IMG/VR virus record: IMGVR_UViG_2537561977_000008
Origin: a virus
Taxonomy: Duplodnaviria; Heunggongvirae; Uroviricota; Caudoviricetes
Direction: 5' to 3' (one strand)
Length of the DNA: 14,425 bases
The notes beneath the pieces were generated by a model that searched no databases, had not been told where the DNA came from, and worked only from the letters and a program-made list of their open reading frames with translations. Below are positions 1 to 9,908 of the stretch, piece by piece. Made by a program: the position numbers and the translations under genes. Within the stretch, counting starts at the first letter, position 1; each line of letters begins with the position of its first letter.

Positions 1-251
1 ACATCCACAATGACGCGCATTACGCCAGCCTGATGGCGGTTATTCGTGAAAAGGAAGAAACACTGAAACAACGCGTGATCCGCGCGCTGGCGGGTTTTTC
101 GGGTTACGGGCGGGTGATGGTTGTCGGTGGCGGGGCGGAGATTGTGGCACCCGCTATCCGCGAAGCCTGCGGAGTTAATGCGACTTTCATCGCGGACGGG
201 GTGCCACAGTTTGCTCTGGTTAATGGGCTGTACGCAATGGACAAGGAGTAA
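1..251 (+). CDS. parM: ParM/StbA-like actin-type plasmid segregation ATPase, C-terminal fragment (5' end lies outside the window)
   Basis: The reading frame is open from the window edge (codon phase from nt 3) to TAA at 249-251. The C-terminus (VMVVGGGAEIV ... FALVNGLYAMDKE) resembles the C-terminal adenosine motif and LVNGMY tail of R1 ParM/StbA as recalled. It is followed directly by a ParR-like gene. Confidence 0.55.
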   Translation, partial: IHNDAHYASLMAVIREKEETLKQRVIRALAGFSGYGRVMVVGGGAEIVAPAIREACGVNATFIADGVPQFALVNGLYAMDKE

Positions 252-255
252 ACCA

Positions 256-567
256 ATGACGACACCAACCAGACGGATAAGTTTCTATCTGAAGCCCGCC
301 GCCGTCAAGAACGAAGGCGAAGCATGCGCCTGGCTGGACAGCCTTACACCAGAAGCCCGCAAAAGTGGTCAACGCGTGGCTTTTCTGGCCGGGCTGGCAC
401 TACTGAAAATGAATCCGGCAGAGGCTTACCGACTGGCTGCATGGGCTGATGATGAGGCGTTATCAGTGACACAAACCAGGACAGAACGCCCCGCGTCACA
501 GCCAGTATCAACCGCACAGATAACCAGTCAGATGGCCGGAAATATCCGGGCGTTATTTCCCGAATAA
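256..567 (+). CDS. parR: ParR-like partition adaptor (centromere-binding protein), 103 aa
   Basis: ATG at 256 with AGGAG 7 nt upstream. The protein (RISFYLKPAAV...LDSLTPEARKSGQRVAFLAGLALL...NIRALFPE) is co-linear with recalled R1 ParR (RTIAFKLNPDV...LDSIPQGERSRLNRAALTAGLALY...NILRSLFPKE). The 148-aa ORF in the track (121-567) is an upstream extension in the same reading frame that overlaps the parM stop region; the real start is 256. Confidence 0.55.
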   Translation: MTTPTRRISFYLKPAAVKNEGEACAWLDSLTPEARKSGQRVAFLAGLALLKMNPAEAYRLAAWADDEALSVTQTRTERPASQPVSTAQITSQMAGNIRALFPE

Positions 568-630: not shown

Positions 631-963
631 ATGCAACACATTGACAGAGAAAAAGCGCAGCGACTGATTGAGCGGATGGAGGCGCTGGCGAAAGAAGAAA
701 ATGTCAACATCCAAAAAATAGCTGAATGTGGCCAGATAGTTCTTCGTCGTGAAAAAGACCTCAAACAACTGATGTCTGGCGAAACCAGCAAAACATGGAC
801 TTCAGGCGAGAAGACGGTTTACTGCAGTTTCTGCAATAAATCCCAGTACGAAGTCACAAAGGTGATTGCCGGACCGTCTGTTTACATCTGCAATGAGTGC
901 GTGGATTTGTGCAATGAAATTATCAGGAAAGAAGTGACAGACAAAAAGGAAAAAAACGCATGA
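631..963 (+). CDS. Small protein (110 aa) with a C-terminal ClpX-type C4 zinc-binding domain; no AAA+ module
   Basis: ATG at 631 preceded by AAGGGGGA. The C-terminal half ([39 protein letters not shown]) is near-identical in motif to the N-terminal zinc-binding domain of ClpX ([39 protein letters not shown], recalled). The N-terminal 60 aa is an unrelated charged helical region. Confidence 0.7.
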
Positions 964-1187
964 ACAGAAAACAGAAACAAGAGTTGAAATACTTCTTACG
1001 TAAAGAAATTGCCAGGCTGGAAGATGTGGAATCTCAATCATCAGAAATTCCGTTCGGAATGGATATCAACGACGCCCGTATGCTTCAGGCATACCGCATA
1101 GCCCTGGCTGCACTACAGAGAAAAGCACCAGACATCAACCCTCGCCAACAGGAAGAACAGGAACAGCACAAAGGAGGCAACCAGTGA
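960..1187 (+). CDS. Hypothetical small helical protein, 75 aa
   Basis: ATG overlaps the upstream stop (ATGA at 960-963), indicating translational coupling. Charged, helical composition; no recognisable family. Confidence 0.45.
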
Positions 1188-1423
1188 GTAATTCAGCACG
1201 ACTACAGCTTGGTTTTTCACCGCTATCAAAAACCATCGTGTTGGCAAAAATGCGTGACTTAGGAGACGGAACAAAACGCCGCGTAGGAAATGATCGCGGT
1301 CGCGATGTAACCAACGGGGCCGCTCAACTCGTTTGGCATCTAGTCATGGCAGAAGGCGGTGAAATTAATTGGGAGCTGGATGATGGTTCTCGTATGATTT
1401 TGAGGGCCGAGAAGAGTAAATAG
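1184..1423 (+). CDS. Hypothetical protein, 79 aa
   Basis: GTG start overlaps the upstream stop (GTGA at 1184-1187) with a strong AAGGAGG 6 nt upstream. No family recognised. Confidence 0.45.
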   Translation: MSNSARLQLGFSPLSKTIVLAKMRDLGDGTKRRVGNDRGRDVTNGAAQLVWHLVMAEGGEINWELDDGSRMILRAEKSK

Positions 1424-1437
1424 CTCAAGGGGGATTA

Positions 1438-1623
1438 ATGCTAAATGATGATGAAGAAGAGCTGCTTATGCAGGAATGGTCGCTCGGTGATTATGATAAT
1501 GGTGAAAATGGGTGCCCGCATTGTGGCCGTTATCGTTTATGTATCTGCCAGAATGGAAAACACAGATGTGAAAAGTGCAATTGGTCTCCGGAACTTAATG
1601 ACTACGTGCCGATCGAGTGGTAG
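1438..1623 (+). CDS. Small Cys-rich putative zinc-ribbon protein, 61 aa
   Basis: ATG at 1438 with AGGGGG upstream. Acidic N-terminus followed by CPHC-x5-CxC-x6-CxxC. Last gene of the four-gene operon. Confidence 0.45.
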   Translation: MLNDDEEELLMQEWSLGDYDNGENGCPHCGRYRLCICQNGKHRCEKCNWSPELNDYVPIEW

Positions 1624-1663: not shown

Positions 1664-1762
1664 TGCACAATAGTGCACAAATTTGCACAATTTTTTTGAA
1701 CGACTTTTTACCCTTCCGGCCTGCGTGGCGGCTGGATCCGTCAAGGATCCGTGCGTGCACAA
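1664..1762. repeat. Four direct copies of TGCACAA in helical phase; candidate protein-binding array (terminase/cosB-like or operator)
   Basis: Copies at 1664-1670, 1674-1680 and 1684-1690 are spaced exactly 10 bp apart; a fourth at 1756-1762 is 72 bp (about 7 turns) further on. The region is AT-rich and non-coding, and also contains a GGATCCGT direct repeat (1734-1741, 1745-1752) and a near-palindromic A7-CGCGC-T5 (1761-1777). Confidence 0.5.
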
Positions 1763-2114: not shown

Positions 2115-3134
2115 TCAGGATGTGGGCTGGGTGTCTAACAGTGCGTAAGGGTTAAAGCGGATCACCTCTTCGCCAAGCCAGTCATTGATGTGCTTCATGG
2201 CCTCCATGACGGGCATCAGCTCGTTAATTGCGTAAACCCGCGCGGCCTTCTCCACATCACCAAACGCACTTTTTTCGCCCGGCATCGCCCCCATCAGTTG
2301 CGGCGGAACGCGGTGCGCAGCCAGCACATCATCACGGGATGCCGCCTTAACATTCATGAACTCATCCTTTGCGGTGATCTGCTGGAACGGCAAAATTTGC
2401 ACCCCCTCTTTGCCCCCGTTGGGCGCATGAATGAGCACGTTTTTAAACGCACCACCACCACGTGCCCCCTGTAGCGTTTCTTTCAGGGAGTCCATGCTTT
2501 CGCGGTTTACCTGCGCTGCACCGATGTAGATGATGCACCCGGCGTGGGATCCGTTGTCGTAGTACAGTTTTCTGAACATGTCCGCCGAATGAGAAAGGCT
2601 GGCCGAGAGTAATGCGCCAAGATATTCCGGCATGCCGTAGATTTCCTGGTTAATATCCGGATTCATCAGGTGGCACACTTTGCCAGGACGAAACTGAAAC
2701 GCATCCTTGCCATCCTGCACATACCACCATGATTCAAGATCGCTTCCGCGTCGCATGTATTTCGCCAGGGCGTGCCGTAATTTAAGCGGTTCGCCGAGCA
2801 TATTGCTCCGAAGCTCAAGGAATGCGTTACCGAACACAAACCAGTCCAGCGCCAGCGCCGAGAAATCCTGCCGGGAAAGCAGCGGGTGCGGAATATAGCA
2901 GCCGAGCAATACATTGCGCTTAAAGTAAAGCGCAGACTGATGCCAGGACGTTTGCCGGGCAGCTCTTGCCAGACCGTACCAGTCCACCGGGGTTTCATAC
3001 CACCGCCCGTTATCAGCACAGTACATATTGTCCAGCAGGTCATGCCCGGTCAGGCGGTAAGGACCATCAAATGTGAATGCACTGAGCGACGATTCTTTCC
3101 TGAGCGCATCAGCGAGATCAATGCGTGAACTCAT
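2115..3134 (-). CDS. Q: Portal protein (P2 gpQ-like), 340 aa
   Basis: Long minus-strand ORF. The start is chosen at the internal ATG (MSSRIDLADAL...) so that it does not overlap the upstream terminase gene. Size and position (downstream of terminase large, next to the cos-side end) match P2 Q. Confidence 0.85.
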   Translation of the reverse strand: MSSRIDLADALRKESSLSAFTFDGPYRLTGHDLLDNMYCADNGRWYETPVDWYGLARAARQTSWHQSALYFKRNVLLGCYIPHPLLSRQDFSALALDWFVFGNAFLELRSNMLGEPLKLRHALAKYMRRGSDLESWWYVQDGKDAFQFRPGKVCHLMNPDINQEIYGMPEYLGALLSASLSHSADMFRKLYYDNGSHAGCIIYIGAAQVNRESMDSLKETLQGARGGGAFKNVLIHAPNGGKEGVQILPFQQITAKDEFMNVKAASRDDVLAAHRVPPQLMGAMPGEKSAFGDVEKAARVYAINELMPVMEAMKHINDWLGEEVIRFNPYALLDTQPTS

Positions 3135-3159
3135 GCGCACTTTTTTATTTTTCTGCTCA

Positions 3160-4912
3160 TCAGAACTCCATAACCGTGAAACGCTCGTTTTCTCCTTCGC
3201 CGCCAATCGGTTCGTTAATGACAGCAAGCATGGTTGCCCACGCAAGGTCGCCGTGGCTGATCCCCCTCGCGCGGTCCGTTTCGTAAGTGATAAAACCGCC
3301 CGGTGTTTTCACCTTACGCACGGCGTTAAAGGCCGCAACCAGCTCGCGTTCGGCGCGATCGTATTCCCACCGCCCGGCACGCATTATTTGCAGCATTTTC
3401 AGTACCAGCGACCGTTTTGATGACAGCGTGAAGGTGTAAGGGATGGCGGCGGGAAAAAACCGTTTCACTATCTGATAGACGGCATCCCCGTGCCCGCCCG
3501 TCGCATCAATGCCGATGTGTTCCACGTTGTAGCGATACGTGAACTCTTCAATAACTCTGGCCTGCTCTTCAAAATTCCAGCCCCTGAACGCGTCGCGTCT
3601 CCACCGTTCTGAAACGACTACCAGGAACAGCCGGAGGAACCACCACGGACACAGCGCCGCTGTCGCCGTTACCACTGCTGCCGTTTGCGTCATACCCAAT
3701 CCATACCGGACGATTCCCCATCGGGCGGGGGGCAAAGGGTTTCCAGTCTTTCCAGTCGTCGTATCCGTCAACACCGCAGCCAATCAGGATATTCAGGTTA
3801 AATGCCGATTCCCCTTCGCGGACAAACTCACACATATAGAGATTGCGGAACTCGTCTTCGGTGTTTTCATCACGAATTTCATCAATATCGGTGTGTTTCC
3901 AGCCGTGATTAACCACATCTTCCAGCGTGACAATTTGCCGCCACGTCCGGTCAGGGCAGATAAGCCCGTTATGCAGCGTTTTCCAGTCCACAGAAAAACG
4001 CTGGCGTTTATGCGCGGCCTTTTTCTCGTTCCAGCGGTCGCCGTTCCAGTAGGCGTATGCCTCGTGCGTTTCGGTGGATGGCGTGGAGAAGCAGGTGCGC
4101 CGCAGTCCGCTGAGGGTTGCCATAGCGCCAGCCACCTTGCGCAGTTCAGCAAAGCGACTGACCCAGAAAAATTCATCAAAATAAAAATTGCCCGTGTAAG
4201 ATTGCGCCGTCGCAGCAGAAGTGCCGAGAAAATGCATCTCTGCGCCGTTGGAGAGGATGATTTTATCGCCCCCTTTCAGCTCCACATCGACTTCAGCCGC
4301 GGCCTTCTGAATAATGCTTTTAAACTGGAACGCCTGACGACGCGACGCAGACAAAAAAATCTGGTTACACTGGTAAGGTTGTGCCACATCGTCACGCAGC
4401 GCCATCAGCAGTGCTTCCTGTGCAAAATACCAGGTCGCCCCAATCTGTCGGGATTTCAGGATCATCCTGTTACGTATCCCGGCTTCCCTGCAAAGCGTCA
4501 GGGAGTCAAACCAGCCCCGCTGATGCCACTCCAGCCTGCTGATGATTTTTTCCCGCAGTGCGGCAATCTGTTCCGGCGTGAAATGATTTTTGAGTTTTTT
4601 CGCCCGGCCTTTCTTTCCTGTGGCCGTCGCATCCGGCTGGCCATCATGCAGTTTTTTAAGCTGCCGGGTCAGCAGGTCTATTTCCTTAAAGTCACCACCT
4701 GTTTTATTCTGTTTTTCAGTAAGCTGGATGAGGCGCGCATCGATGGACTGCGTGACACGCTGCACGGGTGGCGTTTCATCCCACTGGTCGCGTTTTTTCC
4801 ACGCATAAATCGTGTTCGGGTTTATTCCCATCAGACGTGATATTTCTGCGGGCGGATAACCCTGCCAGTAAAGTTGCCGCGCACGCTGGCGCACAAAAGC
4901 GTCCTGAATCAT
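3160..4912 (-). pseudogene. P: Terminase large subunit (P2 gpP-like ATPase/nuclease), split into two frames by a 1-nt indel in a homopolymer run
   Basis: The N-terminal 447-aa ORF (3569-4912) matches recalled P2 P (ILKSRQIGATWYF, NQIFLSAS, FLGTSAATAQSY, FSTPST, NRPVWIGYD). The C-terminal 207-aa ORF (3160-3783, other frame) carries the rest (YNVEHIGIDATG...HGDLAWATM...MEF). The frames switch at the CCCC run on the + strand at 3581-3584. Confidence 0.85.
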
Positions 4913-9456: not shown

Positions 9457-9908
9457 TGATGGCACTGACCGTCCTCACGCTGCTGACCATAACACTCTGG
9501 CAGACATTCAGACTGGGGCAGGAAGACGGACACAACCGTTATACACAGGCGCAACTGGACGATTACAGCCGGACCCTGAAAGAGGCCGGCACCATCATCA
9601 GCACCGCATCCGGTGTACTGCGTGACGTCATGACAGCGCGCCAGAACCGACAACAGGAAGGGGAAATCCGACGTGAACAGCTACGCAACGATATCACGAC
9701 AGATGCATGTGCCCGCGCTGTTCCTGACGCTCGCTTTACTGAGCGGTTGCACCAGCACGCAGAACGCGTCCGCGCCGCCGCCGTCGTTCCGTTTCATCCC
9801 GGAAGGGCTGACCGCCCCCGTACTTCCCCCGCCGTTTCCGGTGACGCCATCATGGGGAAACATCGGGATATGGAGCGACAGCCTCATGGACGCACTGGAA
9901 ACCTGTAA
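9441..9908 (+). CDS. i-spanin (Rz/LysB-like inner-membrane spanin subunit)
   Basis: N-terminal TM helix (ILMMALTVLTLLTITLW) followed by a charged periplasmic region. The o-spanin gene is embedded in its 3' half in another frame. The start could be GTG 9441 (GGAGG upstream) or ATG 9456. Confidence 0.6.
   Translation: MRYILMMALTVLTLLTITLWQTFRLGQEDGHNRYTQAQLDDYSRTLKEAGTIISTASGVLRDVMTARQNRQQEGEIRREQLRNDITTDACARAVPDARFTERLHQHAERVRAAAVVPFHPGRADRPRTSPAVSGDAIMGKHRDMERQPHGRTGNL

Follow-up and report, generated by a model that had tools for sequence, protein, structure and literature searches.

The window analysed here is a 14,425-nucleotide stretch of Caudoviricetes DNA (IMG/VR virus record IMGVR_UViG_2537561977_000008) that carries four small genes at positions 631–1,623, in a variable cargo interval of a P2-like prophage. 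The first of them, gene 1, encodes a free-standing copy of the N-terminal zinc-binding domain (ZBD) of the AAA+ unfoldase ClpX, preceded by a helical hairpin, and it is this gene alone that is of interest. Its conservation, read together with published precedents, suggests that gene 1 may act as a decoy of the ClpX N-domain while genes 2–4 are unrelated passengers of a mosaic, a reading that, taken as a whole, we regard as evenly poised between right and wrong. The four genes are arranged as follows.

631 to 963, plus strand: gene 1, 110 amino acids (aa), ATG start
960 to 1187, plus strand: gene 2, 75 aa, ATG start
1184 to 1423, plus strand: gene 3, 79 aa, GTG start
1438 to 1623, plus strand: gene 4, 61 aa, ATG start

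Genes 1 and 2 share an ATGA stop-start overlap at 960–963 and genes 2 and 3 a GTGA at 1184–1187, genes 3 and 4 are set apart by a 14-nt gap, and purine-rich ribosome-binding sites (RBSs) precede three of the starts (GGGGGA before 631, AAAGGAGG before 1184 and AAGGGGGA before 1438). All four open reading frames (ORFs) have homologues and are therefore genes rather than chance ORFs.

Residues 64–99 of the gene 1 protein match the Pfam profile PF06689 (zf-C4_ClpX) at 64.7 bits (cut-off 27; E 6.8e-18), and phmmer comparison with solved structures of the E. coli ClpX ZBD gives E-values from 1e-19 to 1e-20 across 1OVX and 2DS5 (7e-20 for 1OVX). Identity to E. coli ClpX residues 9–52 is ~78%. The zinc ligands, spaced CxxC-18-CxxC, are C65, C68, C87 and C90; they are invariant in nine family members and align to C15, C18, C37 and C40 of ClpX (Met as residue 1). 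Against the full ClpX equivalog (NCBIfam TIGR00382 / NF003745) gene 1 reaches 51 bits, over profile positions 6–54 only, where the cut-off is 370.75; with a score so far under the cut-off, it is a free N-domain and not a ClpX.

An AlphaFold2 (AF2) model built with nine family members shows two helices (residues 6–23 and 27–48) folded as a hairpin, then a disordered linker, then the ZBD. The modules are bounded at residues 6–48 for the hairpin, 52–59 for the linker, where the predicted local distance difference test (pLDDT) score falls below 50, and 60–109 for the C4 ZBD, whose blocks reach pLDDT 82–91. In Foldseek, the predicted treble-clef ZBD superposes on 2DS5_A at a root-mean-square deviation of 0.7 Å, a template modelling (TM) score of 0.88 on the target and 78% identity, and the matches of the gene 1 model in PDB and BFVD cover the ZBD part only. 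An exhaustive phmmer search with residues 1–60 against 1.84 billion representatives returned 12 matches and no functional lead: in ten cases these are short relatives, or proteins or fragments from this one small family; a further match is a 119-aa protein with 41% identity, and the last, in a 1212-aa protein, probably reflects a coiled coil. To judge from these matches, the N-terminal helical hairpin is family-specific.

An earlier, sequence-only reading of this DNA had described four same-strand ORFs with ATGA/GTGA overlaps and RBSs, the first of them a near-copy of the ClpX ZBD without its AAA+ module. The ORFs, overlaps and RBSs lie where that reading placed them, and the Pfam profile, phmmer, AF2 with Foldseek and the four zinc cysteines all confirm a ClpX ZBD lacking the AAA+ module. 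"Near-copy" holds for the protein (~78%) and fails for the DNA, which is 61% identical to K-12 clpX, and the separate helical-hairpin domain in residues 1–50 had been overlooked.

Conservation extends to the surfaces by which ClpX dimerises and binds its partners. Compared with 14 genuine ClpX N-termini, the P88-type ZBD (named after Escherichia phage P88) departs from invariant positions only at two, with L-to-V/I changes. Phe16 and Ile46, the hydrophobic pocket of ClpX for trigger factor (TF), lambda O, SspB and RssB (PMC7804408), have unchanged counterparts in F67 and I97 of gene 1; our residue-level map of the ligand-binding surface comprises these two positions alone (PMC7804408). Gene 1 has essentially the same sequence in the helix through which ClpX dimerises (ECVDLCNxII). 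The protein may dimerise through its ZBD and bind ClpX ligands.

Judged by its codons, gene 1 is an old copy under purifying selection. Over 48 codons it shares the 61% DNA identity with K-12 clpX given above, and the same codon is used at 11 of the 32 conserved residues. A blastn search with the ZBD-coding DNA matched 178 of 5,426 complete E. coli genomes, and in no case was the match to chromosomal clpX, which is present in all of them. Between P88-type and phage-plasmid-type genes, the ratio of non-synonymous to synonymous substitution rates (dN/dS) of the ZBD is ~0.2; in the N-terminal domain, synonymous sites are saturated, the proportion of non-synonymous differences (pN) is 0.37 and conservation is seen at the protein level, and the linker is relaxed. 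Recent capture of the host clpX gene is ruled out by the codon evidence together with the lack of any blastn match to clpX.

In a separate comparison with a P2-like prophage (L061), the ZBD-coding DNA (window 814–927 against L061:5187–5300) is 88% identical and the N-domain DNA has no blastn match, at an overall protein identity of 54%. This contrast hints either that domains have been exchanged or that the ZBD half is under stronger constraint.

Our viral survey comprised 42 IMG/VR contigs with a P88-type gene 1, and ParM-ParR lies directly upstream of gene 1 in every one of the 41 that have upstream DNA. Full-length relatives, with identities of 44–54%, are carried by D6, a P1-like phage-plasmid, and plasmids related to it, by the ~108-kb phage-plasmids PhiR41_1 and CMS-2020a, by one chromosomal prophage, and by P2-like prophages of Salmonella and E. 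coli in which ParMR is missing, their usual setting being arrays of overlapping small genes beside ead/Ea22-like genes. SSU5-like phage-plasmids are among the carriers of gene 1 relatives. Among the complete E. coli genomes, most non-P88-type homologues sit on 90–113-kb plasmids, that is, phage-plasmids (62 of 188 places). The family may thus be associated with a plasmid-prophage lifestyle; the P2-like prophages of Salmonella and E. coli that lack ParMR run counter to this. Bare ZBD proteins of ~65 aa (phrog_12435, annotated 'Clp protease' or 'ClpX') also recur in Pseudomonas siphophages, including PP9W2, phi1, BUCT566, PSA04 and others, and are apparently an independent case of a phage-encoded free ZBD.

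The gene 1 family is catalogued but uncharacterised. It is PHROG 6797, and RefSeq names it 'ClpX C4-type zinc finger protein'; the PHROG families of all four proteins are listed as 'unknown function'. Rousset et al. 2022, in their survey of the P2 hotspot, list an identical protein (WP_001163782) in Table S5, within a cassette labelled 'StbA + Plasmid_stab_B + zf-C4_ClpX + hypothetical' at the same gpA-gpQ position (PMC9122126). In that survey 'ClpX' does not feature in the table of systems tested, and the main text covers the partition system only (PMC9122126). Literature searches for a published characterisation of the phage ZBD protein, DUF7446 or zf-C4_ClpX returned nothing relevant. Homologues of gene 1 are also commonly mislabelled 'carboxylate--amine ligase' in GenBank and RefSeq, among them those of P88, D6 and many E. 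coli genomes.

The three genes downstream have other histories. Comparing the window by blastn with related loci that we fetched divides it into the following segments.

1 to 1132: 3′ end of parM, parR, gene 1 and the first 58 codons of gene 2; P88 backbone, 97–98% identity
1133 to 1148: junction, no match; recombination junction inside gene 2, where P88 homology stops at 1132 and L061-type homology starts at 1149
1149 to 1414: end of gene 2 and the DUF7446 gene (gene 3); 86% identity to the P2-like prophage L061, 80–82% to a lambdoid prophage and a phage-plasmid
1408 to 1808: gene 4 and downstream DNA; 89% identity to Salmonella-type P2-like prophages
1662 to 2118: non-coding DNA beside the portal gene; P88, 95% identity

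The nearest named relatives of the prophage, at 97–98% identity over positions 1–1132, are P88 (Xuanwuvirus, Peduoviridae) and PhiR44_2. The complete four-gene array was found in one of the 5,426 complete E. coli genomes. In the 42 viral contigs, the N-terminus of gene 2 follows gene 1 in 27 and neither gene 3 nor gene 4 does so in any, and between gene 1 and the portal gene there are at least 13 arrangements among 41 loci, with that of the window a singleton. Pfam searches on ten neighbour proteins from related loci gave no informative domains. These alignments make it very probable that the array is a mosaic of three separately inherited segments and not a conserved unit. Genes 3 and 4 are, on the same comparisons, independent accessory genes that entered by two separate recombination events, and genes 2–4 are not partners of gene 1. 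A recombination mosaic with ORFs coupled this tightly shows that such coupling, in phage hotspots, is no evidence of a functional unit.

Gene 2 carries the first of the seams. Its residues 1–58 are 91% identical to P88 gp20, over that stretch only (members of the gp20 family have 104–112 aa), and its C-terminal tail of 13 residues matches the end of a 174-aa protein of L061, where the corresponding gene precedes DUF7446. With the C-terminal half of gp20 lost and a tail from an L061-type gene, gene 2 is a recombination scar; it has no match in Pfam, NCBIfam or PADLOC. We also considered an Ea22-like protein and rejected it on finding no detectable similarity to the Ea22-like genes in five loci. 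Four viral contigs (L020, L028, L035 and L036, at ~5494) likewise lose P88 gp20 homology after about residue 55, corresponding to window 1124–1148, which suggests a recurrent recombination breakpoint within the gp20-like gene.

Gene 3 is a member of DUF7446 (Pfam PF24233; 57.8 bits against a threshold of 24.1, E 9.6e-16) and is called 'DUF7446 family protein' in RefSeq. Its homologues form 339 clusters, mostly 77–95% identical, with 37 invariant columns; an AF2 prediction with 31 homologues gave a mean pLDDT of 54 and no confident fold. The family is widespread in enterobacterial prophages and is an accessory gene in Ea22-type arrays of lambdoid prophages and phage-plasmids. A ZBD gene and a DUF7446 gene lie within ~1 kb of each other in three contexts, namely the window, L061/L062 and PhiR41_1. 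DUF7446 is missing near the ZBD gene in D6, L014, L015, L058–L060 and all 42 P88-type contigs, and is found without a ZBD gene in the lambdoid prophage. We read the proximity, from this gene content, as the mark of a shared mosaic gene pool rather than of a partnership.

Gene 4 encodes a Cys-rich mini-protein (phrog_24897, E 2.6e-46) whose homologues form 36 clusters. Among 25 homologues, Cys 29, 35, 44 and 47 do not vary and Cys 26 and 37 hardly do, giving two conserved CxxC knuckles (C26xxC29 and C44xxC47). The Pfam profile Zn_ribbon_IS1595 scores 17.1 bits, under its cut-off of 25.4, and from the cysteine pattern the protein is probably a zinc ribbon. The gene has no PGAP/RefSeq annotation in the source genome. 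In Salmonella-type P2-like prophages (L009–L013, 4001–4186) its homologues are always last before the portal gene, with unrelated cargo upstream, as if gene 4 were part of the cos-proximal backbone of a P2-like sub-lineage.

How might gene 1 act? The region would be the downstream end of a rightward early/partition transcription unit, in which a conserved accessory gene 1 is followed by a hypervariable small-gene tail. The ZBD of gene 1, which lies within the natural variation of ClpX ZBDs, would dimerise and compete with host ClpX N-domains for the ligands that depend on them, among them SspB, trigger factor, RssB/sigma-S and substrates of the lambda-O or MuA type. Proteolysis by ClpXP would be damped selectively, where it depends on adaptors or the N-domain, and pore-recognised (ssrA-type) degradation left intact; the gain could be that a phage or plasmid protein, or a host regulator, becomes more stable. 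Published experiments show that isolated ClpX ZBD supplied in trans inhibits the RssB-mediated breakdown of sigma-S by ClpXP, and that deletion of the ZBD leaves degradation of ssrA substrates intact (PMC7226468); degradation of lambda O needs the ZBD (PMC7804408). A decoy is the best-supported reading because the ligand pocket and dimer helix are conserved, trans-inhibition has been published and an N-domain sponge is known in mycobacteria. As a mechanism in its own right, argued from conservation and precedent, it may be correct or mistaken with equal probability.

Several points weigh against the decoy. It leaves the hairpin unexplained, since a bare ZBD would suffice for a pure decoy, as in the 65-aa Pseudomonas phage proteins. 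We know of no ClpXP-sensitive P2-like phage protein that needs protection. The phage-plasmid variants of gene 1 are changed at three positions invariant in the ClpX set (E24, P32-S33 and Y35), so ligand specificity may have drifted. The three shared contexts of ZBD and DUF7446 genes leave a little room for a loose functional link between genes 1 and 3. The reach of a ZBD decoy would have a limit too: it would not obviously block ClpX-dependent defences with a C-terminal AA degron, such as CmdTAC (bioRxiv 10.1101/2024.02.24.581848).

The other explanations differ in what they make of the neighbours, the hairpin and the conserved surfaces. The sequence-only reading had treated the four genes as one operon and a combination that it did not recognise as any described system, and so implied a new defence, anti-defence or toxin-antitoxin system; we find this highly improbable. 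Tight translational coupling and a single terminator would suit such a system, as would the three contexts in which ZBD and DUF7446 genes are neighbours and a hotspot that is rich in defence systems, many unannotated loci having proved defensive (PMC9122126, PMC13586616). These features are outweighed by an array that is complete in one genome of 5,426, by the absence of both gene 3 and gene 4 from all 42 contigs, by the at least 13 arrangements after gene 1, by a gene 2 that is a truncated chimera, and by a gene 4 that travels with cos and not with the ZBD. In PADLOC-DB v2 none of the four proteins has a match at E≤1, and no toxin or antitoxin family was found for them in Pfam, NCBIfam or PADLOC. 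What remains of the earlier claims is the cargo position, upheld by synteny between genes A and Q and by the published definition of the hotspot (PMC9122126), the Cys-rich last gene with its conserved CxxC...CxxC, and, in part, the absence of a described system: PADLOC agrees, but the gene 1 family is already listed in PHROG 6797, RefSeq and Table S5. That reading had also offered, as speculation, a decoy or dominant-negative role against ClpXP, which the published trans-inhibition by free ZBD and the retained pocket residues F67 and I97 make plausible. The unit itself is left unsupported by one genome in 5,426, none of 42 contigs, three ancestries and a remnant for gene 2. To the idea that gene 1 is a decaying, functionless fragment of captured host clpX we give virtually no credence: a clpX-derived domain without its ATPase might look like debris, but purifying selection and saturated synonymous divergence from clpX effectively refute it, and the architecture is kept across several phage types (identities down to 44%) with an N-domain of its own and an intact start and RBS.

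Two further proposals let gene 1 act on ClpX itself. Its ZBD could pair with a ClpX N-domain and graft the hairpin onto the hexamer, as a hijacking adaptor that delivers a target or as a poison subunit that blocks the pore. The essentially identical dimer helix fits this idea, two modules on a disordered linker resemble, in the model, a tethering adaptor, and the hairpin, kept by purifying selection and never found apart from a ZBD, argues for a function beyond that of a bare decoy. The proposal presupposes ready exchange of N-domain dimers and a target, and no target is known; moreover, the bare 65-aa phage ZBDs indicate that a hairpin is not needed for a free-ZBD role in other phages, and we judge it decidedly unlikely. 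A related version, in which the ZBD swaps into ClpX N-domain dimers or forms a competing dimer and the hairpin serves as a new substrate-recognition arm or a selective block, so that ClpXP is re-programmed, seems to us quite improbable. Alternatively, the ZBD could be a repurposed zinc module, a dimerising treble-clef scaffold with a role outside ClpXP that, for example, is anti-sigma-like or regulatory or serves plasmid-prophage maintenance as an accessory. B. subtilis CsfB, a dimeric treble-clef protein resembling the ClpX N-domain, inhibits sigma factors (PMC5890618), gene 1 directly follows ParM-ParR in 41 of 41 P88-type loci with upstream DNA, and most of the non-P88-type E. coli homologues are on phage-plasmids (62 of 188 places). 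CsfB, however, is only ~20% identical to ClpX and uses different surfaces (PMC5890618), whereas gene 1 is ~78% identical with the ligand pocket included; such strong surface conservation is needless for a mere scaffold, and relatives also occur without ParMR. We consider a repurposed module unlikely.

The surrounding locus is that of a P88-like prophage of the P2 family. Positions 560–1700 of the window match at 100% a prophage of E. coli FDAARGOS_943 that is integrated beside pdxB and has the gene order cox ... replication endonuclease A, parM, parR, genes 1-2-3-4, non-coding DNA, portal Q (on the opposite strand) and terminase. Synteny with this source genome and with P88 places the cargo between A and Q, and the gpA-gpQ interval is a published variable hotspot of P2-like phages (PMC9122126). 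Across the array the GC content drops from 0.56 to 0.41–0.47. A P2 cos 19-mer gave no match, and the position next to cos is therefore taken from synteny. The features around the four genes are as follows.

1 to 251, plus strand: 3′ end of parM, the rest of the gene lying to the left of position 1; C-terminal domain of ParM in Pfam (E 3.4e-24), RefSeq 'plasmid segregation protein ParM'
256 to 567, plus strand: parR/stbB-type partition adaptor gene; Pfam Plasmid_stab_B (E 1.6e-24), phrog_2515 'partition protein' (E 1e-58)
573 to 596, no strand assigned: 10-bp G+C-rich hairpin in the 63-nt spacer between parR and gene 1; scored on the minus strand in the terminator scan, plus strand without a T-run
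1673 to 1695, plus strand: terminator-like hairpin and T-run (GTGCACAAATTTGCAC then AATTTTTTTG) closing the transcription unit after gene 4
1662 to 2114, no strand assigned: conserved non-coding backbone next to the portal gene, presumed cos region; 95% identity to P88 and PhiR44_2
2115 to 3161, minus strand: portal gene Q, which bounds the hotspot on the right; present in the ORF listing and named 'phage portal protein' by RefSeq

No sigma-70-like promoter was found in the spacer between parR and gene 1, Rfam returned no RNA family on the whole window, and a repeat search over 500–2150 gave nothing meaningful. Just upstream of parM, outside the window, the source genome has two copies of a palindromic motif of ~26 bp (AAACGGGATTcacAAAACCCGTgAA and AAACGGGATTtgaAAACCCCGTaAA), located where gene A ends and in the spacer that separates it from parM (L003:12604–12706). 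The paired palindromes resemble a parC-type centromere/operator; through it the block of parM, parR and gene 1 would have a promoter of its own, regulated by ParR.

Two observations concern DNA farther away. The Rz1-like lysC gene (window ~9708–9878, L003:23149–23319) is an incomplete pseudogene in RefSeq, and the lysis cassette may be partly defective. In the sister phage PhiR44_2, a 163-aa cargo protein encoded downstream of the ZBD and gp20 genes (L001:2777–3265) has a sub-threshold match to the Mom family (22.4 against 27.1 bits) and is a possible DNA-modification accessory gene.

Should gene 1 be a decoy, ~3% of sequenced E. coli genomes would carry a selective temperate-phage or phage-plasmid brake on adaptor-dependent ClpXP proteolysis. 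Among the pathways affected there could be sigma-S, the cargo of SspB, substrates of the lambda-O and MuA types, and certain antitoxins. Prophage carriage would then be connected with the stress physiology of the host and with how stable phage and plasmid proteins are. Were gene 1 instead a re-programming subunit, ClpXP would be redirected or silenced toward particular proteins of the host or of rival elements, and the protein, common to P2-like phages and phage-plasmids, would be the first case of a virus that encodes a mimic of the very domain by which an AAA+ unfoldase recognises its substrates. Under the decoy reading, mimicry of a domain of the protease itself would join the known phage controls of host proteolysis.

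Among known systems, the closest counterpart is the E. coli ClpX ZBD itself (1OVX, 2DS5–2DS8), with which gene 1 shares the C4 site, the treble-clef (predicted in gene 1), the dimer helix and the Phe16/Ile46 pocket. Gene 1 differs in being phage-encoded, in its extra hairpin and linker, in its 61% DNA identity and in having no AAA+ module, pore loops or IGF loop, and because these are absent it cannot unfold substrates or dock ClpP. The sponge precedent is mycobacterial ClpC2, likewise a free homologue of an unfoldase N-domain with a non-homologous N-terminal region, which acts as a sponge versus ClpC1 (PMC10030653). ClpC2 belongs to another unfoldase, has a helical fold, is chromosomal, has the antibiotic cyclomarin A as its known ligand and has no sequence relationship to gene 1 (PMC10030653).

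Phages are known to inhibit host proteases through T7 gp4.5 and T4 PinA, which act on Lon, and lambda RexB, which acts on ClpP proteases (PMC10286901). These proteins and the ClpCP adaptor-like SPO1 gp53 resemble gene 1 as small phage proteins that reshape host proteolysis, for example by stabilising lambda O or antitoxins (PMC10286901, PMC6873191); unlike the proposed gene 1 decoy, none of them mimics a domain of the protease, and none is homologous to it. The anti-adaptors IraD, IraM and IraP are similarly small proteins that block adaptor delivery, here of sigma-S to ClpXP by RssB (PMC7226468), but they bind RssB through unrelated folds, whereas gene 1 would imitate the docking site on ClpX. 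Nearest in kind among phage proteins are the 65-aa ZBDs of Pseudomonas phages (phrog_12435; 'Clp protease' in PP9W2), which are likewise phage-encoded, free, ClpX-type and uncharacterised, and which differ from gene 1 in lacking the N-terminal hairpin and in an identity of ~45–50%.

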